Sequence record: PX104380.1
DNA: 64,000 bases
Reading direction: 5' to 3' (one strand)
Source of the DNA: a phage
How positions within the stretch are numbered: position 1 is the first letter of the stretch; each line of letters opens with the position of its first letter. The notes under the pieces were generated by a model that was given only the letters and a program-made list of their open reading frames with translations, was not told the DNA's origin and made no database searches. Both the position numbers and the translations under genes were made by a program. Below, in pieces: positions 3,355-61,137 of this stretch.

Positions 3355-3385
3355 ATATAATATCATATCCTGTACCAAAGTAAAC
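3355..3385 (-). promoter_or_regulatory. early-type sigma70 promoter (GTTTAC -35 / ~18 nt / TATA-rich -10)
   Basis: Minus sense GTTTAC-N17/18-TATTAT/ATATAT upstream of ORF 2954-3319. Confidence 0.5.
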
Positions 3386-3387
3386 AA

Positions 3388-3720
3388 TTATTTTACTACT
3401 TTCCAGTGCTGCATGTCAAGTTTACCGACTTTTTTCATCTTCTCAATTAAGCGTTCGGCACGTTGGCGAGCTGTAACATAATACCATTCACCTAATTCAT
3501 TTTGTTCAATTTTTCCAACGATTACTGTATTCAATTCATAAATCCAACCAGTAAAGAAATTATGAACTTGAATTGTAAAGGTGAAATCTGTTCCCATACC
3601 TTCTGTTGTTTCTACTTCAATAATATCACCTTCAACTGCCATTAAGAACCACATAGTTTCATCATATTTACCATTGAAGCATTTAGTTTTAACTGCAGCG
3701 TTCAGATTAATCGTTTTCAT
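3388..3720 (-). CDS. hypothetical protein, 110 aa
   Basis: ORF track; preceded by terminator plus early-type promoter. Confidence 0.5.
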   Translation of the reverse strand: MKTINLNAAVKTKCFNGKYDETMWFLMAVEGDIIEVETTEGMGTDFTFTIQVHNFFTGWIYELNTVIVGKIEQNELGEWYYVTARQRAERLIEKMKKVGKLDMQHWKVVK

Positions 3721-3742
3721 TTTATTCTCCTTTGTTTGTGTA

Positions 3743-3777
3743 AGATAATACTATCACAAAGGAACCATACTGTAAAC
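3743..3777 (-). promoter_or_regulatory. early-type promoter
   Basis: GTTTAC...TAGTAT just downstream of terminator 3797-3825, upstream of ORF 3388-3720. Confidence 0.5.
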
Positions 3778-3796
3778 AACTTTGTGCAATCTTTGG

Positions 3797-3825
3797 AAAA
3801 TAAAAAAGGACTCCCGAAGGAGTCC
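3797..3825 (-). terminator. rho-independent terminator (UUCG-tetraloop hairpin + U-run)
   Basis: Minus sense GGACUCC-UUCG-GGAGUCC followed by UUUUUUAUUUU. Confidence 0.65.
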
Positions 3826-3830
3826 TTAAC

Positions 3831-4007
3831 TTATGCTTTCTGCTTACCAAAACGAGAAGCATCATCTCGAAGAACCGCACGTGCTCGGCGCATGATCTTC
3901 TCAACAGTTTGATTGATACGAGAGTTCGACCCACGCTTGTAGCCAGCGCGTTTAGAATCACCAACTTTCTTTTCAACTGCTTTCTTTGCTTTAGCTTGTT
4001 TTGCCAT
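3831..4007 (-). CDS. small lysine/arginine-rich basic protein, 58 aa
   Basis: ATG at 4007 with AAAAGAG upstream; MAKQAKAKKAVEKK...; track ORF has N-terminal extension. Confidence 0.45.
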   Translation of the reverse strand: MAKQAKAKKAVEKKVGDSKRAGYKRGSNSRINQTVEKIMRRARAVLRDDASRFGKQKA

Positions 4008-4251
4008 TATAAATTCTCTTTTAAATGAAAATGCAGGACTTATTGGCATTGCCTGCGAAAGCCCTCAAAGGGGTACTTAGGTTTTGAATATTTACCGACA
4101 GGATAACCATAAACCCGTCATCATTCACATTCAAGAGGTACACCATAAAACTGCCGGGGTCTTAAAACTATAATGATTCGCAAATCATTAATCAGACAGT
4201 TCGACGGCTCCTCGATTTTAGCTCACACTAAGGCAGTGAATCTCCAATAAA

Positions 4252-4500
4252 TTACTTCAGTGTTACCACAAAGTGACGAACTGCTTTTCGTGCAGCAGAA
4301 GCCAGAGGCTTAGCATATTTAAGTTCATCTTTTTCCTGAAGCTCAGCAGCTAATGCAGTTTGAGCAGGATTCAGATGTTTGAAATAACGCAGGATTTCAA
4401 GAGCTTCGGCTTCAACATCAATAGATGCGCCATAGTTTTCGTGACCATTATTCCATGCGTTTCGTTGCAGTTCAAGAGCGTGTTGTAATTGTTTAATCAT
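4252..4500 (-). CDS. rIII: rIII lysis-inhibition accessory protein, 82 aa
   Basis: 82 aa, position between 30.x block and gene 31, sequence matches recalled T4 rIII. Confidence 0.8.
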   Translation of the reverse strand: MIKQLQHALELQRNAWNNGHENYGASIDVEAEALEILRYFKHLNPAQTALAAELQEKDELKYAKPLASAARKAVRHFVVTLK

Positions 4501-4639
4501 TTAAAAATTCTCGTTAGAGATTAAAACTCGGTAGTCACGTTCTTCTGAATTTCATCTTCTTTCGACAGATCTCTCAGTTGTAGACTACCACATAGAATTG
4601 TTCGGTTAACTTATTATTCCGACACCCAATTCATATTAT

Positions 4640-4647
4640 TATTTATA
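4640..4647 (-). promoter_or_regulatory. candidate late promoter (TATAAATA) upstream of rIII
   Basis: Minus-sense TATAAATA immediately after gene 31 stop. Confidence 0.35.
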
Positions 4648-4983
4648 TCACTTATAAAGACACGGAATAGCTTTATAGTGACAAGTAACGAATTTTTGTT
4701 TAATTTCTTTTGGCTGCTTAAGACCCAGAGCTACAAAAGGATGCGGAACATTTCGAATTTGACCAACTGGAAGAGAAGTCAAATCACCGACTTCGCAGAA
4801 ACCTTCAGGAACATCAGGACCAACAGAGTGAACTACACACAGTTCAGGAACTTCACCTTGAACACGTTTACCGATAATAAGTCCTGATTCTGTAACTTCT
4901 TCATCACCGGCTTGTGCAGGTTCAGAAACTAAAATAACATATTCACCGACAGCACGAATTGGTAGCTGTTGTACTTCAGACAT
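4648..4983 (-). CDS. 31: gp31 GroES-like co-chaperonin for capsid protein folding, 111 aa
   Basis: 111 aa, [19 protein letters not shown]...; length and position as T4 gp31. Confidence 0.85.
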
Positions 4984-6501: not shown

Positions 6502-6737
6502 AGTACGCCATACACCCTTTGTGCTTCAACTAATCCATCAAAATCTAATTTAAGATGCGATATTTGATCGCCATCGCCTGGATTCACAATTACTAATACT
6601 GAACGAGGAGTTTCGGTAATAACACGAACCGATGTTTCAGGAAATCGTTCAGAAACCTTATTTACCAATTCCTGCGCAAATAGCTTAACTTTTTCTTGGA
6701 ATTCTTTAACAGTAATCGGTTTTTCACTTAGCAGCAT
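6498..6737 (-). CDS. hypothetical protein, 79 aa
   Basis: ORF track; early-type promoter upstream. Confidence 0.5.
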   Translation of the reverse strand: MLLSEKPITVKEFQEKVKLFAQELVNKVSERFPETSVRVITETPRSVLVIVNPGDGDQISHLKLDFDGLVEAQRVYGVL

Positions 6738-6763
6738 TTTGTTTTCCTCATTTGTTTGGTAGA

Positions 6764-6796
6764 GCTATAATATCACAACTCTACCGTAAAGTAAAC
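6764..6796 (-). promoter_or_regulatory. early-type promoter
   Basis: GTTTAC-N18-TATTAT upstream of ORF 6498-6737. Confidence 0.5.
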
Positions 6797-6798
6797 TA

Positions 6799-7074
6799 TT
6801 AAATTGCTTTGAATTCTGCTGTCTGCGATTCAAAACGAATATCGCCTTTGATGACTAGCTCAGCATCAAGACCGAATACAACAATGATATGCGCGGAACC
6901 TGGATACAGCGTAATGGCAATAGAATCCACCTGGTCTGGAAGCAAAGTGTTCAATACATGAGTCACTTGAGCATGAATTCGAAGCTCGGCTGCGTTATCA
7001 AGCTTTTCAAACATATTATTAGCGATAATTTGACTAAACACTACTTCTACGATTTTAGAATAAGTCGGAAACAT
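6799..7074 (-). CDS. hypothetical protein, 91 aa
   Basis: ORF track. Confidence 0.5.
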   Translation of the reverse strand: MFPTYSKIVEVVFSQIIANNMFEKLDNAAELRIHAQVTHVLNTLLPDQVDSIAITLYPGSAHIIVVFGLDAELVIKGDIRFESQTAEFKAI

Positions 7075-7277: not shown

Positions 7278-8664
<1,387 letters not shown>

Positions 8665-9541: not shown

Positions 9542-10038
9542 AAAGTTTTAATAACCTCTACAATATCATCTTGAGAAAGACCGTTAATTAAAATATGATG
9601 TTCAGCCGGAGATTTAGAAATTTTAAAGCATGCCTCAACATCTTCTGCCATATCCGATGCACTACGATTTGGATTACTAATTCCAAGACGATGCTTTCCA
9701 GTCAAAGGATTAACGATGATATAGCATTTGCAGCTATTGATATGAACATTAGGTTGAGTCTGATTAATGAACACTTCACAATCATACTTAGCGAGTTGAT
9801 TTTCTAAAAAGACTTTCATCTCCTCAACCGCATCAGGAAGCATATCACGGGCTTGCTCAAGACGACGATTTCGATATTCTTTAATGGTCGTTTTCCGCTT
9901 GACTTGCTTAGCTAAATCTTTCTTAAGATCGGTGATATATCCAACTCGACGATTTCCTTTAAATACAGAAATCCCATCCGTAGTATCACCGTATGCTTCA
10001 ACAACCATTTCAGTAGTAATAAGCTGCAAATCCATCAT
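9532..10038 (-). CDS. alc: Alc-like transcription termination/host transcription shutoff protein, 168 aa
   Basis: Assigned by size (~167 aa) and position between pseT block and rnlA; sequence identity not verified. Confidence 0.55.
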   Translation of the reverse strand: MMDLQLITTEMVVEAYGDTTDGISVFKGNRRVGYITDLKKDLAKQVKRKTTIKEYRNRRLEQARDMLPDAVEEMKVFLENQLAKYDCEVFINQTQPNVHINSCKCYIIVNPLTGKHRLGISNPNRSASDMAEDVEACFKISKSPAEHHILINGLSQDDIVEVIKTLCN

Positions 10039-10063
10039 AAAGTCCTCATGTTATGTCAGTAAG

Positions 10064-10096
10064 ACTACTATAACACAACACGAGGGACTTGTAAAC
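10064..10096 (-). promoter_or_regulatory. early-type promoter
   Basis: GTTTAC...TTATAGTAG upstream of alc-like ORF. Confidence 0.5.
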
Positions 10097-10099
10097 AGC

Positions 10100-11687
<1,588 letters not shown>

Positions 11688-11714: not shown

Positions 11715-12893
11715 TTAAAAATATTTTTTAAAACTCATCATAACTTTATCATCAACATCATTATCAATCTGTGCAACAAGATAAGATGACAGTTCTACTT
11801 CTTGCGGCGCGGATTGAACATTATCAGAATTAAGGTATTCACGAATCCAAGGATATGGATGTTTAACCGGAGCATCGGTAATTGGACATGGAAGACCGCA
11901 CTGTTTCATACGAGATACAGTTAAGTAATCAATAAAGCTCCACATGCTATTTGTATTTAATCCAGGAACATCGCCATCTTTAAATAAATGAACTGCCCAA
12001 TCTTTTTCTTGGCGGTTAACTTCCATGAAAATATCAACTGCTTCTTGTTCACACTCTTGAGCAATTTTAACCCATTCATCACCATCAGTGCCAAGCTGAA
12101 GTTGACGAATAATATATTGAGTGCCTTTAAGGTGAAGTTGTTCATCACGTGCAATGAACTTCATAATCTTGGCATTACCTTCCATGATTTCCATGTTCTT
12201 ATGGAAGTTAAAGGTACATGCGAAAGATACATAAAAACGAATAGCTTCAAGGGCATTAATAACATGCAGACACAGATAAAGCGACTTCATTAGCTCACGC
12301 TTCCAATATGTCTCATGCTCAATAGCATCTTCAATAACGTCTTCGTCTGCATTAATTTCTTTTTGGTATTCGATATCAGCTTTAGCGTTTTCCCAATAAC
12401 GAGTTTTAATCAGAACGTCATCATAATAACGTCCAATGGATTCAGCGCGTTTCATAATAGCTTCATCTAATACAATCTCATCAAATACCTTTGACGGATC
12501 AGTATAAAGATTTCGCATAATATGAGTGTATGAACGACTGTGAATAGTTTCACTAAAAGTCCATGTAGCAACCCATGTATCAAGACTTGGGTCTGAAATT
12601 AATGACATAAGTACAGCAGATGGCGCACGACCCTGAATGCTATCCAAAAGTGATTGATACTTCAGGTTGTTAGTAAAAATATTTTGCTGGTACTGAGGAA
12701 GCTTATTAAACTGTGCAGCATCCATCATTAAGTTTACTTCTTCAGGACGCCAAAAAAATGATAAAGATTTCTCAATAAGTTCTTCAAATACTCTATGTCG
12801 TTGAATATCATATCGAGCTAAACCCAATCCAGAACCAAAAAACATCGGCTCAGTCAAAATATTAACAGGGGATGTATTAAAAACTGTACTCAT
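11715..12893 (-). CDS. nrdB: ribonucleotide reductase small subunit, 392 aa, uninterrupted
   Basis: Full-length contiguous ORF with RNR R2-like features; position between denA and mobE. Confidence 0.9.
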   Translation of the reverse strand: MSTVFNTSPVNILTEPMFFGSGLGLARYDIQRHRVFEELIEKSLSFFWRPEEVNLMMDAAQFNKLPQYQQNIFTNNLKYQSLLDSIQGRAPSAVLMSLISDPSLDTWVATWTFSETIHSRSYTHIMRNLYTDPSKVFDEIVLDEAIMKRAESIGRYYDDVLIKTRYWENAKADIEYQKEINADEDVIEDAIEHETYWKRELMKSLYLCLHVINALEAIRFYVSFACTFNFHKNMEIMEGNAKIMKFIARDEQLHLKGTQYIIRQLQLGTDGDEWVKIAQECEQEAVDIFMEVNRQEKDWAVHLFKDGDVPGLNTNSMWSFIDYLTVSRMKQCGLPCPITDAPVKHPYPWIREYLNSDNVQSAPQEVELSSYLVAQIDNDVDDKVMMSFKKYF

Positions 12894-16352: not shown

Positions 16353-17213
16353 TTATACTGCCATTTTTCCTTTAATTGGCGGGTGAGATACATAGTCGTT
16401 AAGAACAAAATTATGCGGCTTTGCGAATTGACTCAACCAAAATACCTGCGATTCTGTATCCCATTCATCAAATTCATCTGGAAATTTTAATTGTAATTCG
16501 CATAAATCCATAGGTTCACGACGCAAAATTTCTTTACATTGTTCTACGTGATTCATATAGATATGAGTATTACCACCAGAAAATATCAAATCTCCCGGAA
16601 TAAGATTACACATCTTAGCTACAATATGAACTAACGTAGCATATGATGCAATATTAAATGGAAGACCGAGGAAAACATCTACCGAACGTTGATACCACTG
16701 AAGGTCAAGGTATCCATTACGAACATTAAATTGATAGAACATATGACAAGGTGGTAATGCCATCTGCTTGAGTTCAGCTGGATTCCATGCTGAAACAATT
16801 TGACGCCTATCATTTGGCAGTTTTTTAATACGATCAATAACTTCTATAATTTGGTCTACACCACCAAAATCACGCCACTGTTTTCCATAAATTGGACCAA
16901 GTTCACCGCTATGGTATCCTAAATCTTTTGCTTGATTTTCGTAATTTTCATCCCAAACTGTTTTGCCTTGGATTAACGAATCATGTTGAATTAATCGCAA
17001 ATCATTGACATTTGTGCTTCCCGATAAAAACCATATTAACTCAGCAATGCAAGCTTTCCAGGCGAGCTTTTTAGTTGTTACTGCAGGAAAACCTTTAGTT
17101 AAATCCCAGCGTAATTTAGTACCGAACAAAGCAATTGTTCCTGTGCCTGTTCGGTCATCGGTTTCATAACCATTTTCAAAAATGTCTTTAATTAAATCTT
17201 GGTATTGTTTCAT
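16353..17213 (-). CDS. td: thymidylate synthase, 286 aa, uninterrupted
   Basis: Contiguous 286-aa ORF with ThyA features (catalytic Cys region PPCHMFYQF). Confidence 0.95.
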   Translation of the reverse strand: MKQYQDLIKDIFENGYETDDRTGTGTIALFGTKLRWDLTKGFPAVTTKKLAWKACIAELIWFLSGSTNVNDLRLIQHDSLIQGKTVWDENYENQAKDLGYHSGELGPIYGKQWRDFGGVDQIIEVIDRIKKLPNDRRQIVSAWNPAELKQMALPPCHMFYQFNVRNGYLDLQWYQRSVDVFLGLPFNIASYATLVHIVAKMCNLIPGDLIFSGGNTHIYMNHVEQCKEILRREPMDLCELQLKFPDEFDEWDTESQVFWLSQFAKPHNFVLNDYVSHPPIKGKMAV

Positions 17214-18776: not shown

Positions 18777-19019
18777 TCAAATAGACTTTTTCACAATTTT
18801 CCAATCAGCTTTAAACTGATCGACGTCAGAGTGATAAATCCAAAATCCTGCGCTTTCACCGTCTTCATAAAGCGGACACCCATCACATTCATCTTCCCAT
18901 CCCATACCACGTAAAAGATGTTCAGCTTTTTCAACAAGTTCAGAATCTTTACCGATGATATTAAAATACCATTTACCTCTAACTTCTGAATCTTTGATGC
19001 TTTGGCGTTGTAATCTCAT
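18777..19019 (-). CDS. hypothetical protein, 80 aa
   Basis: ATG at 19019 preceded by AGGAGAATAAA; track extension runs through the promoter. Confidence 0.5.
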   Translation of the reverse strand: MRLQRQSIKDSEVRGKWYFNIIGKDSELVEKAEHLLRGMGWEDECDGCPLYEDGESAGFWIYHSDVDQFKADWKIVKKSI

Positions 19020-19048
19020 TTTATTCTCCTCATGTAGTTGATAGGGTA

Positions 19049-19078
19049 ATAGTATCACACTACTACCCTACCGTAAAC
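19049..19078 (-). promoter_or_regulatory. early-type promoter
   Basis: GTTTAC-N18-TACTAT plus conserved leader CTATCAACTAC upstream of ORF 18777-19019. Confidence 0.55.
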
Positions 19079-19443
19079 TACTTTTTGAAAGTTTTTCGCA
19101 AAAGTTCAATGATTTCATCTACATTGTTTTCATCTACAATGCAGTGAATTTTTGTTACGCCAGAAACCGGGTCTTTGACTTCATCTTTTTCAGAAGTCGG
19201 TTCTTTATACTCACGAAAACAATGAAATTCGTCTTCACAAACGTTAAAGTAAAAATGCTTTCCATTTGCGCATTCAATGTGTTTTATTACTCTAAATCCA
19301 TCAACAAAGAAAGCTTCTTTAACTTCAAACCATCCGCCATTTTCTTGAATAATTTTAACTATTGCTGAATTAGAACGTGGGCAATAATTAATAAATGTAT
19401 CAATAAGTCTTGGAACAAGTTCATACTTTTTACCGATATACAT
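19078..19443 (-). CDS. hypothetical Cys-containing protein, 121 aa
   Basis: ORF track; ATG verified. Confidence 0.5.
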   Translation of the reverse strand: MYIGKKYELVPRLIDTFINYCPRSNSAIVKIIQENGGWFEVKEAFFVDGFRVIKHIECANGKHFYFNVCEDEFHCFREYKEPTSEKDEVKDPVSGVTKIHCIVDENNVDEIIELLRKTFKK

Positions 19444-19487: not shown

Positions 19488-19715
19488 TTATTGTTCAATC
19501 AATCCCATGTAAAATTCTGCGTCTTCAGAATCCATACCATCACAATATTCATTAGCCATAAAGCGGGTGAGGTCTTCAAGAGGACCTTCAATAACGATTT
19601 GAATACTCCAAAACTTAGAATCTTGCACGCTTGTGATACTAAGTTCAGGATAACGATTACGAATAATTTCTTCGATATATTCAAAATCAACGATGTCAAT
19701 ATCAACTTTAGCCAT
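19488..19715 (-). CDS. hypothetical acidic protein, 75 aa
   Basis: ATG at 19715 preceded by AAAGAGGAAAATAAT; track extension covers promoter. Confidence 0.45.
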
Positions 19716-19756
19716 ATTATTTTCCTCTTTAATCATCAGCAGTATTGCCGATAGTT

Positions 19757-19788
19757 GTATAGTACCATGGAAGGACAAGGATGTAAAC
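19757..19788 (-). promoter_or_regulatory. early-type promoter
   Basis: GTTTAC...GGTACTATAC after gene 32 terminator. Confidence 0.55.
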
Positions 19789-19811
19789 CGTTTTGTGAAA
19801 AAATTTTTGAA

Positions 19812-19839
19812 ATAAAAAAAGGGGACCCTAGAGGTCCCC
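19812..19839 (-). terminator. rho-independent terminator downstream of gene 32
   Basis: Minus sense GGGGACCUCUAGGGUCCCC followed by UUUUUUUAUUU. Confidence 0.65.
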
Positions 19840-43566: not shown

Positions 43567-43770
43567 TTAATTCATATTACGCTTAATAACTTCAGCAACT
43601 TCTAGTAATTCATCTTTAGTTGCAGTGTCGGATTGAATTTTATCTCTAATATCTTTAAAGCGGTTTTTAAATTCTTCGGCTTCTCCCATATCGAAAAAGC
43701 GTTGAATGATTCTATATTCTCGATGAACTGCTTTATCAAAAAGTTCTAAATTTACTTTATATGATTTCAT
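43567..43770 (-). CDS. hypothetical protein, 67 aa
   Basis: ORF track; early-type promoter upstream. Confidence 0.5.
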
Positions 43771-43795
43771 TTCAATATCCTCATTTGCCCAATTA

Positions 43796-43825
43796 ATTAT
43801 ACCACATCCTTGTGGTAAAGTAAAC
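43796..43825 (-). promoter_or_regulatory. early-type promoter
   Basis: GTTTAC-N18-TATAAT upstream of ORF 43567-43770. Confidence 0.55.
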
Positions 43826-45642
43826 TACTGGCTCATCCATTCTTTACGAAGGTCAGCATTATCTCCCATGAGCATTTCAAAAAGCTCATTCCAGTTCTCA
43901 GGAAGTTTAACAACATCATATACCGGATTTTGAATCATCTCACGATATTCAGATTTTTCCAAAGAGCCAAGTCCCTTAATATAACGGATGCTATGTTTAG
44001 GTAGAGCATCTTTAGCACTCTCATATTCAGCGACTGTATAAAACCATTCTTGTTTTTTACCGACCTGAGCGATGATTACAGGAGTTTTGACAAAGCGAAT
44101 TCTTCCTTGTTCAAACAGTTCTGGCCAATTACTAAAAAATCCGAGCAGAGAAGGATAAATGCTTCCTAGACCATCATGGTCAGCATCGGTCATAATAGCA
44201 ATATTATGATAATTCAAGTTTTCAGCTTTTTCACCAAGAACTAATCCAGTGATTGCGCAAATATCAAACAGTTCTTTGTTTTTAAGCATATCAGCATATG
44301 ACATACCCCAACTGTTGAGAACTTTACCGCGCAATGGATAGCCACCATGAAGTTCTTTATCACGAACATCGATTAAATAACCAATTGCAGAATCACCCTC
44401 AGTCAAGAAAAGAGTAGTGTCAGCATCTTTACCACAAAGATTCGCTTTGATATGTTTATGAACCTTAGCTTTAGAAGCCTTTTTAGCTGCTTTAGTTTCT
44501 GCTGCTTTTTCTGCCGCCAATTTACGAGCCAAGGCAGCTTCAATAATCGGCATTAAAATTGCTTCATTATTTAGAATAGCGCGTGAAATCTTTTTAGCAT
44601 CAAGTTGAATATGACTACGAATTTCGCCAAATGGAGAAGTCAAACGCTCTTTAGTTTGAGAATCAAATCGCATGTTTTTCATATCACGGACAAACATAAC
44701 GATAGTCAAACATTCTTTAACGCGTGCTTTAGTCACATCAATTTTGAACTTACGTTTGATTTGTGGAATAAGGTCTTCACAAATATCATCCATAACACAG
44801 TCAATGTGATGGCCACCATTCTTAGTGTGAATGTTATTCACATAAGTTAATTGACGAAAACCATCCGGTGAACGACCAACCGCAATAGAGCAATTTTCTT
44901 GTTCTTGAACGATAGCATGCTCATCATATTGGCGTGCATATTTCTTAAAATTGCCCTGAACCTTTTTACCATTAAAGGTAAATTGAATATCAGGATAAAC
45001 TACTGCAAGTGTCTGGAGACGATCTAGTGTAATGTCAAGATAAACTTGGGACAGCTCATTAGTTTCAAATGACATAAAATCAGGAATGAAAGTAACACGA
45101 GTTCCTTTCCATTTTCCAGGAATAGTTTCCCATGATTTATTTTCCATGCCATTTGAACAACGAACTACAATATTATTTTGACCATCACCAGTTTCACCGA
45201 CAAACATCACAGAAAAAATGTTTGTCAAACTAGAACCAACACCATTCATACCGCCAGTGACGCGTTCTTTATCATCACCGAAGTTACCACCTGCTTTTGG
45301 AATAGTCCAGGCAGCAACAGGACCAGGAATTTCTTCACCGGTAGGTGTTTTGACCATCGCTTGTGGAATACCGCGACCGTTATCTTCAACTGTTACCTGA
45401 TTATTTTTAATGGTAACATTAATTTTATTCGCGAATTTAAACTTAGTACGAATACCTTCATCTACTGAGTTATCGATAATTTCATCAATAAGCTTAACAA
45501 GACCAGGTACATACTGAACACTTTCCCATTTACCAAACAGAAAGCGCTCATGCATTTCATTAGCAGAAGAGCCAATATACATGCCGCTACGCTTTTTGAT
45601 ATGTTCAATATCGCTCAGAATTTTAATTTCATTCTTAATCAT
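43825..45642 (-). CDS. 39: DNA topoisomerase II large subunit gp39 (GyrB-like), contiguous 605 aa
   Basis: GHKL ATPase N-terminus (IDEIIDNSVDE, GRGIP), TOPRIM region; single uninterrupted ORF. Confidence 0.9.
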   Translation of the reverse strand: MIKNEIKILSDIEHIKKRSGMYIGSSANEMHERFLFGKWESVQYVPGLVKLIDEIIDNSVDEGIRTKFKFANKINVTIKNNQVTVEDNGRGIPQAMVKTPTGEEIPGPVAAWTIPKAGGNFGDDKERVTGGMNGVGSSLTNIFSVMFVGETGDGQNNIVVRCSNGMENKSWETIPGKWKGTRVTFIPDFMSFETNELSQVYLDITLDRLQTLAVVYPDIQFTFNGKKVQGNFKKYARQYDEHAIVQEQENCSIAVGRSPDGFRQLTYVNNIHTKNGGHHIDCVMDDICEDLIPQIKRKFKIDVTKARVKECLTIVMFVRDMKNMRFDSQTKERLTSPFGEIRSHIQLDAKKISRAILNNEAILMPIIEAALARKLAAEKAAETKAAKKASKAKVHKHIKANLCGKDADTTLFLTEGDSAIGYLIDVRDKELHGGYPLRGKVLNSWGMSYADMLKNKELFDICAITGLVLGEKAENLNYHNIAIMTDADHDGLGSIYPSLLGFFSNWPELFEQGRIRFVKTPVIIAQVGKKQEWFYTVAEYESAKDALPKHSIRYIKGLGSLEKSEYREMIQNPVYDVVKLPENWNELFEMLMGDNADLRKEWMSQ

Positions 45643-47162: not shown

Positions 47163-47432
47163 TTAATTGAACAGCGGAGCGATACGTTTCAGAAGAGTAG
47201 CAGCACCTTTAGCGAATTTTACATCATGAAAAACAGTTTCTTCTTCTGTAACAACTCGAACTTTAATATTTTCACAATCCCAATTTTTACGAACAATCTT
47301 CAAAAGCTGCAGTAAATCTTTACATTCAGCAATATCGATAACACATCCACGAGAATCTTCCATTATCGCACGATAACCGTAAGCCATACCATAATCGTTG
47401 AAAGATTGCTCGATGATAATTAAGTTTTCCAT
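47163..47432 (-). CDS. hypothetical protein, ~89 aa
   Basis: Second ATG at 47432 has GGAG at correct spacing. Confidence 0.45.
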   Translation of the reverse strand: MENLIIIEQSFNDYGMAYGYRAIMEDSRGCVIDIAECKDLLQLLKIVRKNWDCENIKVRVVTEEETVFHDVKFAKGAATLLKRIAPLFN

Positions 47433-47529
47433 TTTATTCTCCAAGTTGTTTTCTGTATCAGTAGTTGATATTGATATAGTACCATAATCAACTACTGATG
47501 TATATAGTTTTATGAAAAAATTTTAAACT

Positions 47530-48027
47530 TTATGCATAGCGAGCTTTGCTGTAGTGTTTAATCCAACTTTCAGGAATGACTTTGTATGTTCCCAAAAATA
47601 CCACGTTGTACAACTTAACACCATCTTCTACCCACTGATCGGTAATGTATGCACACATAGCACGAGTATGATGTTTTTGAACAACCCCTTCCTCATCTTC
47701 AGTAAATTCGAATTCATAAGGAGCAACGAACTTAATAGCTTGACCGAGTTTCCACTTAAAGTCTACACCTACATGTGAAGTATCAATCGTTTCAATTCCT
47801 TTAGCAGGAACAGCTTTCAAAAACGCAGACTCAAGAAATTTCGCACGAACATAGCCAAACTGAGGTTTAGACTTTCCATCTTTAGGAATGATACGCACTT
47901 TTACTTCAGAATCTTCATCTTTAACACCATGTTTAAGCTGAATGCTTACAATTTCGACCAATTTTCCTGCTGCTTTAGAACGGGATTTATCAGATACACG
48001 AGCAATTTCACCAATATTAATAATCAT
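47530..48027 (-). CDS. hypothetical protein, 165 aa; paralog of the next gene
   Basis: C-terminal AYITDQWVEDGVKLYNVVFLG similar to GWVTDQWIEDGVELLNVVHAG of 48104-48649. Confidence 0.5.
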   Translation of the reverse strand: MIINIGEIARVSDKSRSKAAGKLVEIVSIQLKHGVKDEDSEVKVRIIPKDGKSKPQFGYVRAKFLESAFLKAVPAKGIETIDTSHVGVDFKWKLGQAIKFVAPYEFEFTEDEEGVVQKHHTRAMCAYITDQWVEDGVKLYNVVFLGTYKVIPESWIKHYSKARYA

Positions 48028-48071
48028 AGTTATCTCTCACTTGTTAAAAAGATTTTATACTCCACGGGACC

Positions 48072-48101
48072 AGAGTATAATGGTCCCAAGAGTTTGTAAA
48101 C
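48072..48101 (-). promoter_or_regulatory. possible early-type promoter
   Basis: GTTTAC present; -10 less clear (TTATAC/TACTCT); flanking inverted repeat GGGACCA/TGGTCCC. Confidence 0.35.
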
Positions 48102-48103
48102 TA

Positions 48104-48649
48104 TTAATTTAAAATAGCTACCACCGCACTACGAGGTACTACACTAAAATCACCTGCATGAACAACGTTCAGAAGTTCAACACCATCTTCAATCCACTGG
48201 TCTGTTACCCAACCACAGATAGGATTATCAAAAGGACGACGGATAGACACAGCAGCACACAACAGGTCTGTAGGGTCTTGTTCTTCAACTTCTTGGAACA
48301 GGATGAACTCATCTTCATAAACCAGGTTTTTCTTTATTTTGTTATTATCTAACCGGCGACCGTGGATGACGTAAGATTTGTCAAACCACTCACTTTTGGC
48401 AAATTCTTCAACAATAAATTCGCCTTCGCCAAAAACATCAGTCAGAGTTTTATGACCAGAAATCAAGGCATTAGTTTTAATTTTAGGTTCAACCAGTTTG
48501 TAGGTTTTGCCGATTTCAATAGCGATAGTCATAGTAGGTTCCTTAATTTCCAGTGGTTTAACAGGGCATACATAAGTGCTTACAACATCAAAATCAATCA
48601 GTTTAGCTACCGGATTTGGTATGTATTCAGGATTATAATTAAATTTCAT
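48104..48649 (-). CDS. hypothetical protein, 181 aa; paralog of previous gene
   Basis: Shared C-terminal motif with 47530-48027. Confidence 0.5.
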   Translation of the reverse strand: MKFNYNPEYIPNPVAKLIDFDVVSTYVCPVKPLEIKEPTMTIAIEIGKTYKLVEPKIKTNALISGHKTLTDVFGEGEFIVEEFAKSEWFDKSYVIHGRRLDNNKIKKNLVYEDEFILFQEVEEQDPTDLLCAAVSIRRPFDNPICGWVTDQWIEDGVELLNVVHAGDFSVVPRSAVVAILN

Positions 48650-48651: not shown

Positions 48652-49152
48652 TTATCTCATTTCAATAAAATCTACGAGTTCAGCATGCGATTTGCGGAAC
48701 ATTACTTGGTGCCCACCAATGATAACTTCATCTTCAGGAACTTCGTATACAGCGAGATAAAATCCTTTAGAAGATAATTCTTCCCGCTCTTCTCGTGTGA
48801 ACCATCTCATCATATCATACTCACTAGCGAAAGCAAAATGATAAAGAGCTATAAACCATCCTGGAATATGATATTCTACTCCAACATAATCTTTCTTGAA
48901 CTTAGTATTAATTACTATATTAGCGTTTTTAACTAATAGTTTATCTTCGTGTGGTAAAGGAATTCTTTTATTATTATCGCTATGATGCATAAAATTAGGT
49001 CTGTCATAACCTACGTGTAATAGCCACTCTTCGCTCCATGAATCTATTATACTCCTGTACGGAGTTATTTGAACACAAAGATTTCGACGTATTGTTATAG
49101 CATCTTCATAATCAAGAATACTAAACGATGATTCAACACGATAAATTTTCAT
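48652..49152 (-). CDS. hypothetical protein, 166 aa
   Basis: ORF track; ATG verified; early-type promoter upstream. Confidence 0.5.
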   Translation of the reverse strand: MKIYRVESSFSILDYEDAITIRRNLCVQITPYRSIIDSWSEEWLLHVGYDRPNFMHHSDNNKRIPLPHEDKLLVKNANIVINTKFKKDYVGVEYHIPGWFIALYHFAFASEYDMMRWFTREEREELSSKGFYLAVYEVPEDEVIIGGHQVMFRKSHAELVDFIEMR

Positions 49153-49176
49153 TTTATTATCCTCAGTAGCTATGGT

Positions 49177-49209
49177 GTTATAATACCATAACTAACCGAG
49201 GAAGTAAAC
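49177..49209 (-). promoter_or_regulatory. early-type promoter
   Basis: GTTTAC...GGTATTATAAC upstream of ORF 48652-49152. Confidence 0.5.
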
Positions 49210-49215
49210 AACTTT

Positions 49216-49899
49216 TTATCGTTTTGTTGGAAGAGATAGAGGATCACACTCTTCCTCTGACGGAGCATCTTCAAGACCCATAGCATATCGCAAAGCATAC
49301 TTCATCATCAGGATGTCTTTCGCACAGTCATGAATAGAATCATGCGCAACGAATCCATTTAAGGTTCCCTTCGGAAGAGGACACGTGGTCATATCACGAA
49401 CAAGGAGAAGTGCTTCAATTCTAGTACGAATATCACGCTGATTCCAAAATTTACAAGGTTCTAACTTAAATGTATCAAGCTCATTCTCGGAAACGCCGTT
49501 AAGACGTTGAATATCGCGAATGAGATCGACTAAAATTGGAAAATCAAACGACATTCCACGGCACCAGCCTTGAGATTTCCAAGGATCGATATTATGTGCA
49601 TTGATGTAATCATTGAATTTTGCAATACCATCAATGGTGCTTACATCTTCATCTGATGGTGCAATATTTTTTCTAGCTTCAGGCGATTGATTTTTCCACC
49701 ATTCAATAGTGCTTTTAGTAAAAAGACGGTGTCCTTTTTGACTTTTTAAGTCAAATTTAATTTTAATGCCACGTGAAACTAGTTCATCGAATGTTTCAAC
49801 AACTTCCGGGTTAGGGTCAAAGGCAATAACAGCCAAATCAATAACAGCTGCCTTTTCACCGCTTCCCATTGTTTCAAAATCTATAATAAAATCAAACAT
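49216..49899 (-). CDS. dexA: exonuclease A (DnaQ-like 3'-5' exonuclease), 227 aa
   Basis: 227 aa; MFDFIIDFETMG exo I motif; matches recalled T4 DexA. Confidence 0.9.
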   Translation of the reverse strand: MFDFIIDFETMGSGEKAAVIDLAVIAFDPNPEVVETFDELVSRGIKIKFDLKSQKGHRLFTKSTIEWWKNQSPEARKNIAPSDEDVSTIDGIAKFNDYINAHNIDPWKSQGWCRGMSFDFPILVDLIRDIQRLNGVSENELDTFKLEPCKFWNQRDIRTRIEALLLVRDMTTCPLPKGTLNGFVAHDSIHDCAKDILMMKYALRYAMGLEDAPSEEECDPLSLPTKR

Positions 49900-52261: not shown

Positions 52262-53008
52262 TTATCCTCGGATAAGTTTAAAAATTGAACAATTTAGCGG
52301 GTATCCTCTTTTCAGTTTAAGTTTATCAATAAAAGACAAGTTTTGATACCGCTCTACACCTTGAATAATTTTATCACACATATCATATTGCATTTCTGCT
52401 TCTGACAACTTTTTCACAGTTTTCCAATCCGAGCCTTTAAGAAGAACGTTCAATTTAACAACTTCAGCGCCTTCTGCTATGCGAGAACCATCAATACGAG
52501 CTTTAAGTGCTATAATCGTTAGCTTAACGTCAGAAGTTTGTTTTGATTTAGAAAGCTGAGAAATGTGTTCAATTCGGTTTTCACGTTTTTTCTGTATAGC
52601 TTTAATTTGATTATAAGTCTTTTTGATTTTAGCCCATTTCTTTTCATCTAAATTTAGTTTATGAACTTTTTTCGCAGATGAACGACCAATTCGCAAAGCA
52701 AATAAATCACGTTTTTCAATTAACTCCTCTAAAGTATAATCAGAACGAAATGTATTATACTTTTTCTTTACTGCAATAACATTCCCTTTAATGTATCCAA
52801 TGTTATTATCAAAACGTTCTAATGATAATTTCTCTCCTTCAATACGATTATCAAAAGGTTCTCCTGAATAGGCACAAACTTTTTGATCTAAAATGTTCTT
52901 AATGTAATTGAAGTCTAAGTTAAAATCTTTAGAACGTCTTTTTGCAGATGCCTGAGTATGCTCTAAACGACGTTTAATTTTACGAATTTGATTATTAGAC
53001 AGTTTCAT
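52262..53008 (-). CDS. srd: Srd-like protein, 248 aa
   Basis: Assigned by size and position between dda and modA; sequence not independently verified. Confidence 0.5.
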   Translation of the reverse strand: MKLSNNQIRKIKRRLEHTQASAKRRSKDFNLDFNYIKNILDQKVCAYSGEPFDNRIEGEKLSLERFDNNIGYIKGNVIAVKKKYNTFRSDYTLEELIEKRDLFALRIGRSSAKKVHKLNLDEKKWAKIKKTYNQIKAIQKKRENRIEHISQLSKSKQTSDVKLTIIALKARIDGSRIAEGAEVVKLNVLLKGSDWKTVKKLSEAEMQYDMCDKIIQGVERYQNLSFIDKLKLKRGYPLNCSIFKLIRG

Positions 53009-53029
53009 ATTTTTCTCACATCTTACGGA

Positions 53030-53063
53030 CGATTGACTACTATACTATAACATTTTTACCTTA
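53030..53063 (-). promoter_or_regulatory. early-type promoter
   Basis: GTTTAC...TTATAGTATAG upstream of srd-like ORF. Confidence 0.5.
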
Positions 53064-53130
53064 GCTTGTAAACAACTTTATGTAAAAATGCTTTAAAAAT
53101 TTCATGGTATAATGAATCTAAGTCCTTCCA

Positions 53131-53733: not shown

Positions 53734-54353
53734 TCAACTACCTCAATATCATAAACTTTAAATGTTCCAAACGAATCGTGTAATTTTTCTTTTGAAATAG
53801 AAGTTATTTTATACTTTCCAATTGGAATCATCCATTCTTGTTCACGCACGATCATCATTAAGTTATCAGTACGCTCTGAATCTAATCCATCAGTATCTTC
53901 ATATGTATACTTAAACTCAGTATTAGGAGAAGAAAGTATAATATCGCTGATATGGTCAGAGTAATTAAAAGCTTTATCAGTTTTTAAGCGGAATATTATT
54001 TCAGTGAAATATTCAGCATAAGAAAAAGAACACGCTGTGTGTAAACTAGTAGTAAATGAATCTACCCTATTCGTTGAAAACACATCTCCAACCTGTAAAT
54101 TTTCTATTATTTCTTTTGTTGTTTTTGATATACCACGATATAACTGATAAGGCGATTTAGTTAAATGCTTTTTAATGATTTTATTCAACTGTCTGTGAAG
54201 AGCTTCATTCTTTTTGGCTTCCATACATTGCCAAAGAATTGATTGTTCAAAATCAGTAAACTTTTCACAAACCTTTTTATACATATCATATTGAAAATCA
54301 ACGCTTTCAGCTTTTATAGATAACTGTTCAACATCTGCAAGATTAATAATCAT
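53730..54353 (-). CDS. modB: ADP-ribosyltransferase ModB, 207 aa
   Basis: 207 aa, upstream of modA, shared architecture. Confidence 0.8.
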   Translation of the reverse strand: MIINLADVEQLSIKAESVDFQYDMYKKVCEKFTDFEQSILWQCMEAKKNEALHRQLNKIIKKHLTKSPYQLYRGISKTTKEIIENLQVGDVFSTNRVDSFTTSLHTACSFSYAEYFTEIIFRLKTDKAFNYSDHISDIILSSPNTEFKYTYEDTDGLDSERTDNLMMIVREQEWMIPIGKYKITSISKEKLHDSFGTFKVYDIEVVE

Positions 54354-54376
54354 GATAGCCTCCGTATACTTCAGAA

Positions 54377-54409
54377 GCTATCATATCATTGTTAGAAAGG
54401 AAAGTAAAC
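54377..54409 (-). promoter_or_regulatory. early-type promoter
   Basis: GTTTAC-N18-TATGAT upstream of modB. Confidence 0.5.
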
Positions 54410-54420
54410 AACTTTTTGAA

Positions 54421-54603
54421 TTATTTTGCCCAGGGAGCCCAAGGCGGAGGGTCAAGATGGTATGAAGCCAGTTCTTCTAGAAGAGCATCTGGGGCTTCAA
54501 TTCCATAATTCTGTAATACTATACGGTATTCTTTCTTATAATCACTAGAATCATTCTGGATATTCGTAGAATGATTATCTTCTAACATCTCAAATAAATC
54601 CAT
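54421..54603 (-). CDS. hypothetical protein, 60 aa
   Basis: ORF track. Confidence 0.4.
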   Translation of the reverse strand: MDLFEMLEDNHSTNIQNDSSDYKKEYRIVLQNYGIEAPDALLEELASYHLDPPPWAPWAK

Positions 54604-56249: not shown

Positions 56250-56461
56250 TACAAAAAGCCTCTCTTAAATTCGATTCTTTGAAATCCACCCCAGTCAGTG
56301 TATCGCATTTCAGCATTGAACTCGACTGAACCATCTGCATGCATCATGAATGAATGCGTGACGATATCACAATCCCAGCTTTTCATACCCCATTTATCAG
56401 AGATAGCTTTATCAAGAACCTTCTGGAGGTCTTCATTTGGTTTAATCCAACGATTTAACAT
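56249..56461 (-). CDS. hypothetical protein, 70 aa
   Basis: ORF track. Confidence 0.45.
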   Translation of the reverse strand: MLNRWIKPNEDLQKVLDKAISDKWGMKSWDCDIVTHSFMMHADGSVEFNAEMRYTDWGGFQRIEFKRGFL

Positions 56462-56485
56462 AGTGCTCTCCTCTATAAGATAATT

Positions 56486-56517
56486 CTATTATACCATACT
56501 CATTTTGGAAAGTAAAC
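56486..56517 (-). promoter_or_regulatory. early-type promoter
   Basis: GTTTAC-N18-TATAAT directly after soc terminator. Confidence 0.55.
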
Positions 56518-56526
56518 CAGTAAAAT

Positions 56527-56551
56527 GAAAAAAGGACTCCCGAAGGAGTCC
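56527..56551 (-). terminator. rho-independent terminator downstream of soc
   Basis: Same 18-nt hairpin GGACUCCUUCGGGAGUCC as at 3808-3825, followed by UUUUUUCAUUUUA. Confidence 0.65.
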
Positions 56552-56559
56552 TTGAATTA

Positions 56560-59474: not shown

Positions 59475-59476
59475 TT

Positions 59477-59641
59477 TTACTCTTCTTTTTCTTTAGATTC
59501 CTCTTTTTTCTTTTTAGGAATCTGTTCAGGACCTTTATTTACTATAGCACCTGATGTTGTTCCAGTAGAGATATTTTCAGGATTACCACCTGAATCTCCA
59601 GCAACCATATCTTCTTTAATAAATTCTTTATATGTTTTCAT
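59477..59641 (-). CDS. hypothetical small lysine/glutamate-rich protein, 54 aa
   Basis: ATG at 59641; below track cutoff. Confidence 0.35.
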   Translation of the reverse strand: MKTYKEFIKEDMVAGDSGGNPENISTGTTSGAIVNKGPEQIPKKKKEESKEKEE

Positions 59642-59642
59642 A

Positions 59643-60290
59643 TTAACCTCTATTCATAAAAGCATTAAAAATTTGATCGTCAATAGAAACTTTTACTTTA
59701 GGCTGTTCTTCAAACGGTAATTCATATCCACATATTACAATTTTGTGATCGATACCAAAATACACAGAAGCAATATGATTAATATTATTTTCAGTGAAAT
59801 CTAAATCAACATCAACATCTTTTTGACTAACGCTCAAAGGATAATTAATACGAATAATTCGATTATCTTTAACAAAGATTCCACCGACATACTCTGTGTT
59901 GCGTTTAAAGTTTACACGTTTCCTAAATGAAAAATATTCAGGTTCTTTATGAGCCCGACTCATAGGACACAATGAGTAGCTAGAATAAGAGATGTCAAAT
60001 CCTACACCTTCAATATGAATATGAGCCAACGTGTCATGATTAAACCAATTATAATCATATGCCAAATCCATTATATTGTAATATGTGAAAGGCACCGGAT
60101 TAACATCATGTGTTGTACCTTTAAAATCTGCCCAGGCAACGATTTCGTTATCTTTAACAATTACAAAAATTGTGCCAATAAGATATCCACGGTTATTTTC
60201 ATCAGGCGTTATAGTATAACATTGTGCATCAGGAAATTTACCGTATTTAAACGGTGGATTTTTGTGCATATAATAAATCATATTATTCAC
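59643..60290 (-). CDS. hypothetical protein, 215 aa
   Basis: ORF track. Confidence 0.5.
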   Translation of the reverse strand: MNNMIYYMHKNPPFKYGKFPDAQCYTITPDENNRGYLIGTIFVIVKDNEIVAWADFKGTTHDVNPVPFTYYNIMDLAYDYNWFNHDTLAHIHIEGVGFDISYSSYSLCPMSRAHKEPEYFSFRKRVNFKRNTEYVGGIFVKDNRIIRINYPLSVSQKDVDVDLDFTENNINHIASVYFGIDHKIVICGYELPFEEQPKVKVSIDDQIFNAFMNRG

Positions 60291-60576
60291 CTGTGATTTC
60301 GGTTACGATATTTTTGTTATTAAAGTTTTTATCGCAATACAGAACATAATTATACTGCATTACACCACCAGACTTAAGCTGTTTTTGTACTTCAGCTTTC
60401 ATTTCAGGACGATCGCGCTCAACAATATTCATAATATCCGCTTCAATTTGAGTTTCAACTTCAGTCTGATCTGCAGTCATAGACCATTCACACAAATCTT
60501 TATCATATCCTGCCATAGCAGGCTGAGCAGCACAAGAAGCCAAAGTAAAAATTGTAGCAAAAATAAATTTTTTCAT
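60283..60576 (-). CDS. secreted/periplasmic protein, 97 aa
   Basis: N-terminal signal peptide MKKFIFATIFTLASCAAQPAMA. Confidence 0.5.
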   Translation of the reverse strand: MKKFIFATIFTLASCAAQPAMAGYDKDLCEWSMTADQTEVETQIEADIMNIVERDRPEMKAEVQKQLKSGGVMQYNYVLYCDKNFNNKNIVTEITGE

Positions 60577-60602
60577 GATAATCTCCTCAGTAGTTTATGT
60601 TT

Positions 60603-60634
60603 ATATAGTATCTCAATTTCCAACAAAAGTAAAC
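60603..60634 (-). promoter_or_regulatory. early-type promoter
   Basis: GTTTAC...TACTATATA upstream of ORF 60283-60576. Confidence 0.5.
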
Positions 60635-60636
60635 AG

Positions 60637-60894
60637 CTATTTTAAAACTTCTGTATAATCACATGTTACAAACTGTTTCTCTAACTTGACGATTTTACGA
60701 AAATACCTTTTACACTGACGAATCTGTCGCTTCGTAGGACGTACAGCAAACTTAATAAATTCCACTCGACCAAATGGAGGACTTTCTTCTGCTGGAATAT
60801 CTAGCACCAATTCCCACGTATCTGCAATAAGTGCTTTGAATTGAGTATTTTTCCTGACGTTATACGGAGTAGGTTTAAATAAAACAATATGCAT
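60637..60894 (-). CDS. hypothetical protein, 85 aa
   Basis: ORF track. Confidence 0.5.
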   Translation of the reverse strand: MHIVLFKPTPYNVRKNTQFKALIADTWELVLDIPAEESPPFGRVEFIKFAVRPTKRQIRQCKRYFRKIVKLEKQFVTCDYTEVLK

Positions 60895-60895
60895 A

Positions 60896-61078
60896 TTATC
60901 CTCGGCAATCTACTTCACATACTTTCTTGTCATCAATGAAAGCTTTAACTAATGCTGTATTAACTTCAGCATATTGAGTAGTAGCCCATTGAACGTCATC
61001 TTTCATCATTGTGATTTCTTTAGTAAACGTACTTTCATTCTTAAACCACCCCATAAAAACTACCTTTACCAATTCCAT
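60896..61078 (-). CDS. dmd: Dmd (discriminator of mRNA degradation; antitoxin against host RnlA/LsoA), 60 aa
   Basis: 60 aa MELVKVVFMGWFKNES...; matches recalled T4 Dmd; immediately downstream of gene 41. Confidence 0.75.
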   Translation of the reverse strand: MELVKVVFMGWFKNESTFTKEITMMKDDVQWATTQYAEVNTALVKAFIDDKKVCEVDCRG

Positions 61079-61104
61079 AACAATCTCCTCATTTAACCAA
61101 CAAG

Positions 61105-61137
61105 ACTACTATACCATAGTCTTGTCAGCTTGTAAAC
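61105..61137 (-). promoter_or_regulatory. early-type promoter
   Basis: GTTTAC-N18-TATAGT upstream of dmd, overlapping gene 41 stop. Confidence 0.5.

Follow-up and report, generated by a model that had tools for sequence, protein, structure and literature searches.

The 64,000-nt stretch of phage DNA analysed here (sequence record PX104380.1; hereafter the window) carries 20 promoter cassettes, all on its early-gene (minus) strand, that almost certainly serve a T4-like phage as its early promoters (Pe). A typical cassette consists of an A-rich tract, the -35 element GTTTAC, a -10 box and a short leader that runs into the Shine–Dalgarno (SD) sequence and start codon of an early gene. The family is already a known one, made up of strong T4 early promoters, RegB sites and promoter early stem-loop (PeSL) modules. 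The phage is a Tequatrovirus, with 95–97% identity to slur02, ADUt and PST-type phages. An 8-kb piece of the window with rIIA, rIIB, motA and topoisomerase genes is 96.8% identical to ADUt, slur02/04 and PST-type Yersinia phages, and the nrd/ligase/tail-fibre region of the same group matches the first 25 kb at 95–96%. The G+C content of the window is 31–38%. The T4 map direction corresponds to its plus strand, so that early genes lie on the minus strand and tail-fibre genes 34–37 on the plus strand, with the strand switch at about 23.7–34.2 kb.

The pattern GTTTAC-N17-19-TANNAT matched the window 17 times, against 0.99 ± 0.97 (maximum 4) in dinucleotide-preserving shuffles, which served as the null model for motif counts. 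The recurrence of the module on the minus strand, as originally predicted, was borne out by 16 of these 17 matches. A two-block position weight matrix (PWM) was trained on 14 cassettes matching the pattern (the seeds). It scored at least 10 at 27 positions of the minus strand and at none of the plus strand, compared with 0.03 in shuffles. Two pattern matches within tail-fibre gene 34 (24175–24204, minus; 24626–24656, plus) had low PWM scores and were at chance-level number; they were dropped. The PWM added five variants: 10096, 53073 and 61137, all with the -10 box TATAGT, 47505 with the -35 element ATATAC, and 48101 (cassettes are named by the position of the G of their -35 element). The resulting set of 20 begins and ends where the original prediction had placed the first and last cassettes (3357 and 61137).

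Comparison with T4 identifies the cassettes. A syntenic T4 counterpart exists for all 20, at 90–99.5% identity, and the genes downstream are classic early genes, from 30.7 to dmd. Promoter features are absent from the T4 RefSeq/GenBank records except for a single note, 'early promoter Pe133295', between cd.2 and cd.3. The +1 predicted for the T4 ortholog of cassette 6796, counting 7 nt from the -10 box, is exactly 133295; thus our start-site rule agrees with the T4 annotators. Moreover, the record of Yersinia phage fPS-2 labels as 'predicted early promoter' eight of the nine cassettes in the stretch from rIIA to gene 41, among them those of rIIA.1, motB.2, srd, modB, mrh.2, sp and dmd.

The architecture agrees with this assignment. 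T4 early promoters have been described as having GTTTAC at -36 to -31, an A-rich part at -40 to -44 and, on the 5' side of -12, sequence rich in G and T (PMC1524935), and as 'uber UP/-35/TGn/-10' promoters that out-compete those of the host (PMC2988021). By differential RNA sequencing (dRNA-seq) of T4, early-phase promoters carry TGTG(A/G)TA(C/T)(A/T)AT, and 90 of 150 transcription start sites begin with A (bioRxiv 10.1101/2024.04.04.588121). The window cassettes carry the T4-specific -35 element GTTTAC(A/T), and GTTTAC itself is also present in four of the five PWM variants, the remaining one being 47505. The distance from GTTTAC to TAnnAT is 18 nt in 14 of the pattern-matching cassettes, which equals the canonical 17-bp spacer, and 17 nt in 3385. 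An A-rich UP-type tract extends from -40 to -55, with A at -40 in 14 of the 14 seeds, at -44 in 12, and at -42 and -54 in 11 each. The extended -10 element (TGn) is equally evident (G at -14 in 13 of 14 seeds, T at -15 in 12), and the cassette pattern at -10, GTGR/ATGR TAYWAT, is that of the T4 dRNA-seq motif. The seeds also share a conserved block directly 3' of the -10 box, outside the pattern by which they were selected. The predicted +1 lies 19–38 nt from the ATG, an SD sequence and the ATG of a same-strand open reading frame (ORF) follow every one of the 20 cassettes, and the leaders end in an SD sequence of the GGAG/GAGG type before the ATG of an early gene. The module as originally described, an A/T-rich tract, GTTTAC, about 18 nt and a -10 box, is conserved in its UP positions, spacing and TGn alike. 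In elements, spacing, A start, downstream genes and synteny, the cassettes show no essential difference from T4 Pe promoters; the window merely has a flipped -10 loop at motB and a few replaced spacers and downstream genes.

With syntenic T4 orthologs, the published architecture, the fPS-2 labels and the Pe133295 match all in agreement, the prediction of strong T4-type early sigma70 promoters holds. Only the word 'unmodified', which it had applied to the host polymerase reading them, calls for a nuance: host sigma70 fits, but injected Alt ADP-ribosylates an RNA polymerase alpha subunit at once, stimulating some early promoters (PMC2988021). To judge from T4 biology, host sigma70 RNA polymerase would bind the UP, -35 and TGn elements as well as the -10 box and fire immediately after infection, and its alpha subunit would quickly be ADP-ribosylated by the injected Alt.

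Following the window, the first cassettes are the promoter of the 30.7 ortholog at 3317–3409 (-35 at 3385, -10 TATTAT ending at 3357, +1 at 3350, ATG at 3319; T4 ortholog 98% identical) and that of the 30.8 ortholog, of PeSL type, at 3718–3801 (-35 at 3777, -10 TAGTAT, +1 at about 3741, ATG at 3720; 99%). The cd.2 ortholog promoter, which is the ortholog of T4 Pe133295, occupies 6735–6820 (-35 at 6796, -10 TATTAT, +1 at 6760, ATG at 6737). Among close relatives this last cassette is polymorphic: at several of their loci (L171 and L173–L175) a different ORF stands upstream of cd.2, with no promoter cassette. The variant promoter of alc (10036–10120; -35 at 10096, -10 TATAGT, ATG at 10038) has a PWM score of 7.4 and a T4 ortholog with 97.5% identity. 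It is followed by the promoters of the frd.1 ortholog (19017–19102; -35 at 19078, -10 TACTAT, +1 at 19042, ATG at 19019), of frd.3, of PeSL type (19713–19812; -35 at 19788, -10 TACTAT, ATG at 19715), and of rnh (23615–23700; -35 at 23676, -10 TATAAT, ATG at 23617), where the arms AGATTT/AAATCT surround the -10 box.

Beyond the tail-fibre genes come the promoters of asiA (34522–34609; -35 at 34585, -10 TATTAT, ATG at 34524; T4 ortholog 97% identical) and of motA, again of PeSL type (36977–37074; -35 at 37050, -10 TACTAT, +1 at 37014, ATG at 36979). Next are the ortholog of the T4 ndd.4 promoter (38995–39079; -35 at 39055, -10 TACTAT, ATG at 38997) and the promoter of an 87-amino-acid ORF (39502–39586; -35 at 39562, -10 TACTAT, ATG at 39504) that was not found at that position in T4. 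The rIIA.1 promoter (43768–43849; -35 at 43825, -10 TATAAT, ATG at 43770) is 99.5% identical to its T4 ortholog. A variant cassette at 47430–47529 has the degenerate ATATAC at 47505, the -10 box TACTAT and an ATG at 47432. The motB promoter (48025–48125; -35 at 48101) has an inverted -10 loop, ATTATACTCT at 48072–48081, between GGGACC and GGTCCC. The remaining cassettes serve motB.2 (49150–49233; -35 at 49209, -10 TATTAT, ATG at 49152), srd, a variant (53006–53097; -35 at 53073, -10 TATAGT, ATG at 53008), modB (54351–54433; -35 at 54409, -10 TATGAT, ATG at 54353), mrh.2, of PeSL type (56459–56541; -35 at 56517, -10 TATAAT, ATG at 56461), sp (60574–60658; -35 at 60634, -10 TACTAT, ATG at 60576) and dmd, a variant (61076–61161; -35 at 61137, -10 TATAGT, ATG at 61078).

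How alike are these cassettes to one another? Compared over 80 nt, their pairwise identity averages 0.46 and does not exceed 0.74, and their spacers are 0.30 identical, compared with 0.27 for random sequence. They are a consensus family rather than near-identical copies. The figure of at least 17 cassettes in the original prediction is thus sound (17 pattern matches, 20 cassettes after curation), but their near-identity is not. A sub-family of six (19078, 19788, 37050, 39055, 39562 and 47505) is more homogeneous, sharing the -10 box TACTAT, with the UP tract 0.5–0.9 and the start region 0.5–1.0 identical.

Some of the cassettes have the organization of PeSLs, the mobile terminator-promoter units described in T4-like phages (Arbiol et al. 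2010, PMC2839356; Comeau et al. 2014, PMC4122927). Four of the 20 are directly preceded by a perfect, GC-rich hairpin and its T-run (-15 to -17.6 kcal/mol). The terminator upstream of 3777 (3806–3827; -15.0 kcal/mol, z -4.25) has the form AAGGACTCC-TTCG-GGAGTCCTT with a T-run; that upstream of 19788 (19821–19839; -15.2 kcal/mol) is GGGGACC-TCTAG-GGTCCCC with a T-run. The one upstream of 37050 (37080–37101), AGGGAGAGC-CGAG-GCTCTCCCT with a T-run, was ranked first by the terminator scanner (-17.6 kcal/mol, z -4.0), and the one upstream of 56517 (56532–56553; -15.1 kcal/mol, z -4.9) again reads AAGGACTCC-TTCG-GGAGTCCTT with a T-run. All four lie on the minus strand, and the fPS-2 record also annotates a terminator adjoining the mrh.2 promoter. 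The terminators predicted at 3.8, 19.8, 37.1 and 56.5 kb are therefore all real, although four of 20 hardly amounts to the 'frequently' of the prediction; each of the remaining 16 directly adjoins the stop codon of the gene before it. The order of terminator, early promoter, SD and ATG at these four places is that of a PeSL. All 20 cassettes, like PeSLs, end 3' in an SD and start codon, and the match to TTTACW-N17-TAYWAT, the promoter consensus of PST/T4 PeSLs (PMC4122927), is a further likeness; the difference is that the upstream stem-loop is confined to the four. The stem-loops at 3806–3827 and 56532–56553, which are 52 kb apart, are identical and have a UUCG tetraloop, and the cassette at 3.8 kb cross-matches the T4 copy of the 56.5-kb cassette.

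A further likeness to PeSLs, the position of indel and replacement junctions relative to T4 inside the cassettes, between -10 and ATG, bears on the alternative that survives best. According to it, recombination or gene conversion between paralogous modules of PeSL type, more than selection on single bases, keeps the cassettes alike, above all those of the sub-family, the cassettes being chiefly portable crossover sites for gene shuffling. Six of 36 breakpoints between the window and T4 fall within 60 bp of a cassette, compared with 1.35 expected (p=0.0016), a count in which junction 39515 was entered twice and which represents about four independent events. Homology to T4 breaks inside the leader of 19078, where 65 bp are present only in T4, and ends just past the leader of 39562; a junction also falls inside cassette 47505, and 200 bp found only in the window start just downstream of it. 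Introns, homing endonucleases and the tip of the tail fibre make up most of what otherwise separates the window from T4. In the frd.3 promoter (cassette 19788), the 14-nt spacer at 19763–19782, atccttgtccttcc, is wholly different from the T4 spacer aagcataaagcttt while both flanks are kept, and the T4 spacer recurs identically in a non-orthologous cassette, the ndd.6-type promoter of the T4-like contig L068. This recurrence suggests patch conversion between paralogous promoters. In addition, cassettes 39055 and 39562 share 30 identical nt across leader, SD and ATG, and experiments in RB49/phi1 have demonstrated both mini-circles and crossovers of PeSLs (PMC2839356). Junctions within cassettes, the swapped spacer and the recurrence of the T4 spacer in L068 together indicate that recombination between cassettes is ongoing. 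On the other hand, spacers within the sub-family are at chance level (0.21–0.43) while UP tract and leader are 0.7–1.0 identical, which is the pattern expected of purifying selection, and the start-region consensus is common to non-orthologous promoters of other genera. Weighing these, we give recombination as the main cause slightly less than an even chance. It accounts in part for the similarity of the sub-family, and it is compatible with selection on functional blocks rather than exclusive of it. Recombination between paralogous cassettes adds to the near-identity of leaders in the sub-family of six, and the same recombination has shuffled the downstream genes.

Two further observations concern repeated strings in and near the cassettes. 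About 1.1 kb of T4 (stp, ndd and ndd.1 to ndd.3; T4 165508–166624) is absent at 38872–38887 of the window, and from its sequence the phage appears to be without ndd. A 16-bp direct repeat, GTGAGGAAAATATGAA, made up of SD and start codon, forms the junction and in T4 is present at both ends; thus conserved translation-initiation strings also act as crossover sites. Separately, a spacer motif, CCACAAGGA(T/C) followed by GTGGTA, recurs in non-orthologous promoters at 39536–39556 and 43800–43819 and, among many others, in IMG/VR loci L029, L036, L046, L060, L116 and L128; its CCAC forms with GTGG a small inverted repeat that includes the extended -10.

The second alternative concerns the conserved leader. 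The original prediction took it for a post-transcriptional signal common to the cassettes, such as a portion of a GGAG processing site. The 11-mer CTATCAACTAC occurs exactly at 19034–19044, 37006–37016, 39011–39021 and 39518–39528, and with one mismatch, as ATATCAACTAC, at 47461–47471; all five adjoin cassettes. Altogether the window has six matches against 0.95 expected, including one chance-like match on the plus strand. The leader was said to be present often: it is exact in four of the 20 cassettes and one mismatch away in a fifth, but it is not general, and the degenerate form cTATCAA is commoner. To examine its register we drew on the window, T4, RB69 and IMG/VR T4-like contigs for a non-redundant collection of 80 T-even cassettes (the 80-cassette set). 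Of 31 occurrences of TATCAA, 28 stand at offset 6 from the -10 hexamer, whereas the ATG follows at anything from 20 to 44 nt. Moreover, the predicted +1 lies about 2 nt into CTATCAACTAC, whose first bases are therefore untranscribed. The start-region consensus, C-2 T-1 A+1 T C A A, and the fixed register with the -10 box rather than the ATG mark the 11-mer as the start-site and initially transcribed part of the promoter consensus, with ATCAACTAC as the segment from +1 to +9, and not as a processing signal.

What does hold is the proposal that GGAG is a processing site, as an element separate from the conserved leader. RegB cuts early mRNAs in their SD sequences, and the strong-site consensus for RegB/S1 is GG*AGRAYARAA (PMC3014915; Durand et al. 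2006, PMC1702504). GGAG is present in 12 of the 20 leaders. Exact GGAGRAYARAA sites number only four on both strands of the 64 kb (3330, 3730, 19029 and 47442), and all are in SDs directly after cassettes on the minus strand: GGAGAACAAAA at 3320–3330 after 3385, GGAGAATAAAA at 3720–3730 after 3777, and those at 19019–19029 after 19078 and 47432–47442 after 47505. Four more cassettes, including those of motA, motB and motB.2, whose RNAs are published RegB substrates (PMC1702504), are followed by sites with one mismatch. The motA site is GGAGATTAGAA, and the SD of motB.2, GGATAATAAAA, is a rare GGAU site reported to be cleaved by RegB (PMC1702504). These sites lie at variable distance from the 11-mer and do not depend on it; the exact sites at 3330 and 3730 follow cassettes that lack it. 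Deletion analysis found that what RegB/S1 requires lies 3' of GGAG, with 'no specific information upstream' (PMC1702504), which places the conserved 11-mer outside the RegB signal. A post-transcriptional function of the 11-mer itself is therefore very improbable. By analogy with T4, the GGAG and A-rich run in the ribosome-binding site (RBS) would later be cut by RegB/S1, shutting off translation of early messages.

Several points weigh against the early-promoter assignment. The activity of the cassettes in this phage is predicted from orthology, and the conserved +1 to +9 segment may act in start-site choice or promoter escape. Cassettes 10096 and 48101 have low PWM scores, and 48101, with its inverted -10, and 47505, with the -35 element ATATAC, may be weak or inactive. 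The weakest alternative, that the motif is a by-product of A/T composition or marks MotA-dependent middle promoters, can be set aside: the genome is indeed 64–69% A+T and generic sigma70-like matches abound (83 sites between 36 and 56 kb), but these stand at shuffle level (84.0 ± 8.7 expected) while the T4-type pattern is enriched about 17-fold on one strand, so the signal is not an effect of A/T-richness, and the -35 element is GTTTAC, with the MotA box TGCTT at -30 (consensus from PMC2988021 and PMC1524935) in no cassette.

Some of these early promoters have an additional feature. Stable hairpins surround the -10 box in six or seven of the 20 window cassettes, their 5' arm lying within the -35/-10 spacer and their 3' arm over the discriminator/+1 region. 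Six predicted RNA hairpins, with energies of -12.9 to -20.2 kcal/mol and z of -3.9 to -6.9, are as stable as true terminators, the -10 hexamer being pulled into the stem through G·U pairs. All on the minus strand, they belong to the promoters of 30.7 (3345–3377; -16.1 kcal/mol, z -5.5), cd.2 (6758–6785; -16.3, z -6.5), frd.1 (19040–19072; -19.4, z -5.5), motB (48066–48087; -12.9) and dmd (61099–61126; -13.8, z -4.5) and to cassette 47505 (47457–47499; -20.2, z -6.9), which has 13-bp arms. Weaker hairpins are found in the rnh (23632–23668) and motB.2 (49165–49206) cassettes.

The pairing exceeds expectation by several measures. In the window, the spacer is exactly complementary over at least 6 bp to sequence just 3' of the -10 box in eight of 20 cassettes, compared with 33 of 380 cross-cassette pairings (permutation p<2e-4). 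In the 80-cassette set, spacer complementarity of at least 6 bp to the discriminator/+1 region is present in 13 cassettes against 2.1 expected (0 of 4000 permutations), and a composition-corrected z of -3 or below in 14, compared with three of 150 random 42-mers. There the hairpin z is lower on the sense than on the antisense strand (p=0.0003), and a strong hairpin never occurs together with an upstream terminator (0/14 versus 17/65, Fisher p=0.03). The arms also covary. Across genera the rnh promoter has AGATTT/AAATCT, ACTCAG/CTGAGT with the same geometry, or TCAAaTGA/TCAagTTGA; the motB promoter has GGGACC/GGTCCC or, in the one extra ortholog usable for comparison, GAGAGC/GCTCTC, with pairing kept. 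In divergent relatives the arms of the 30.7 promoter are invariant while its UP tract and leader diverge.

The promoter's own transcript would begin within the 3' arm, at the predicted +1, which leaves read-through RNA from upstream as the only RNA able to form the hairpin. We put forward, tentatively and as a rather doubtful proposal, that about one in six T-even early promoters is built into a -10 hairpin that is a selected RNA element marking the transcript origin. Our best guess at its role is a protective 3' hairpin for the upstream cistron or insulation of the downstream RBS in read-through mRNA. If so, the -10 hairpin could stand in for a terminator, with an invertible -10 box, as at motB, as a side effect. 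Homogenisation of the arms by template switching (PMC8604942) could yield the same covariation without function. The closest known analogs of the proposed RNA element are the RBS-sequestering hairpins with an internal promoter at T4 genes e, soc, 49 and I-TevI (PMC3014915). There, too, the proximal start comes only after the 5' arm, and the helix is possible in read-through RNA only; however, the internal promoter is early here, not late, and the 3' arm covers the discriminator/+1 rather than the SD or AUG. A literature search for arms or dyad symmetry at the -10 of T4 early promoters, with the classic T4 promoter papers outside its scope, returned nothing relevant, and an Rfam scan of the whole window returned no family at the gathering threshold.

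The idea that the spacer acts as a specific anti-SD, silencing the gene in read-through RNA, was rejected as a general feature: spacer–SD pairing of at least 5 bp was found in 14 of the 80 cassettes against 14.2 expected from the cross-cassette control. SD accessibility showed no consistent drop either (Wilcoxon p=0.78). As a separate observation, in the motB.2 promoter of RB69 (L145, about 7380–7429) the whole 13-nt spacer, TTCTCCTCTGGTT, exactly complements the downstream SD region, AACCAGAGGAGAA, and contigs related to RB69 keep the pairing by compensatory changes (TTCTCCTCATG / CATGAGGAGAA).

At two of these promoters the loop between the arms is recorded in either orientation. In the motB promoter the 10-nt loop (between arms at 48082–48087 and 48066–48071) is the exact reverse complement of T4 AGAGTATAAT. 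Seed-limited 62-nt queries of the GenBank phage collection counted 10 records with the window orientation and 493 with that of T4; exact-pattern scans of IMG/VR for both orientations returned no match. With the loop flipped, TGn is lost and TATACT remains, at 15-bp canonical spacing, while the plus strand gains TATAAT (48076–48081), 16 bp from TTTATA. The flip should thereby alter the strength and direction of the promoter.

A second case is the 14-nt loop of the cd.2 promoter (6765–6778; T4 NC_000866 133300–133313), which lies between GGTAGAG and CTCTACC and is flipped in the 1985 T4 entry X03007.1. The T4 record itself notes at Pe133295 a 14-bp 'inverted complement of previously reported sequence', which is exactly this loop. 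The flipped form is present in no modern genome of the collection, only in X03007, and could reflect a mistake in the old sequencing or a variant of the strain. Seven full-length matches to the flipped 6796 loop in Pu-Krd-SF proved to be in the normal orientation. Flipped alleles of 3385 and 61137 were not found with inverted-loop queries, which gave partial matches only; since a unit of arm, loop and arm is self-reverse-complementary, these represent the normal allele as read from the other strand. The exact inversion of the motB and X03007 cd.2 loops between their arms resembles spacer inversion by template switching (e.g. PMC8604942), with the difference that the inverted segment here is the -10 box of a promoter.

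The window departs from T4 in several further places. It lacks 600 bp where T4 has the nrdB intron (12217–12220) and 1017 bp where T4 has the td intron (16664–16665). Gene 39 (43825–45642 region) is a single ORF of 605 amino acids, and of T4's gene 60/mobA region about 1.1 kb is missing. In the distal tail-fibre region, 29609–33570 (gene 37 tip and gene 38; 3960 bp versus 3488 bp in T4), nucleotide similarity to T4 is undetectable, as expected of a host-range cassette. Finally, the gap between denB.1 and denB holds a symmetric hairpin, AAGGGC-TTCG-GCCCTT at 40183–40198, with T-runs on both strands, which looks like a bidirectional terminator.

Reading of the sequence alone thus recovered real regulatory grammar, adding no new principle, and the outcome is a clean list giving the coordinates of 20 promoters in this genome. 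Only the -10 hairpin and the loop inversion might be new. If -10 hairpins act as RNA, they would represent a design rule by which packed early operons separate read-through from promoter-proximal messages, and the flipped motB loop would be a ready-made test case for recombinase-free promoter inversion.

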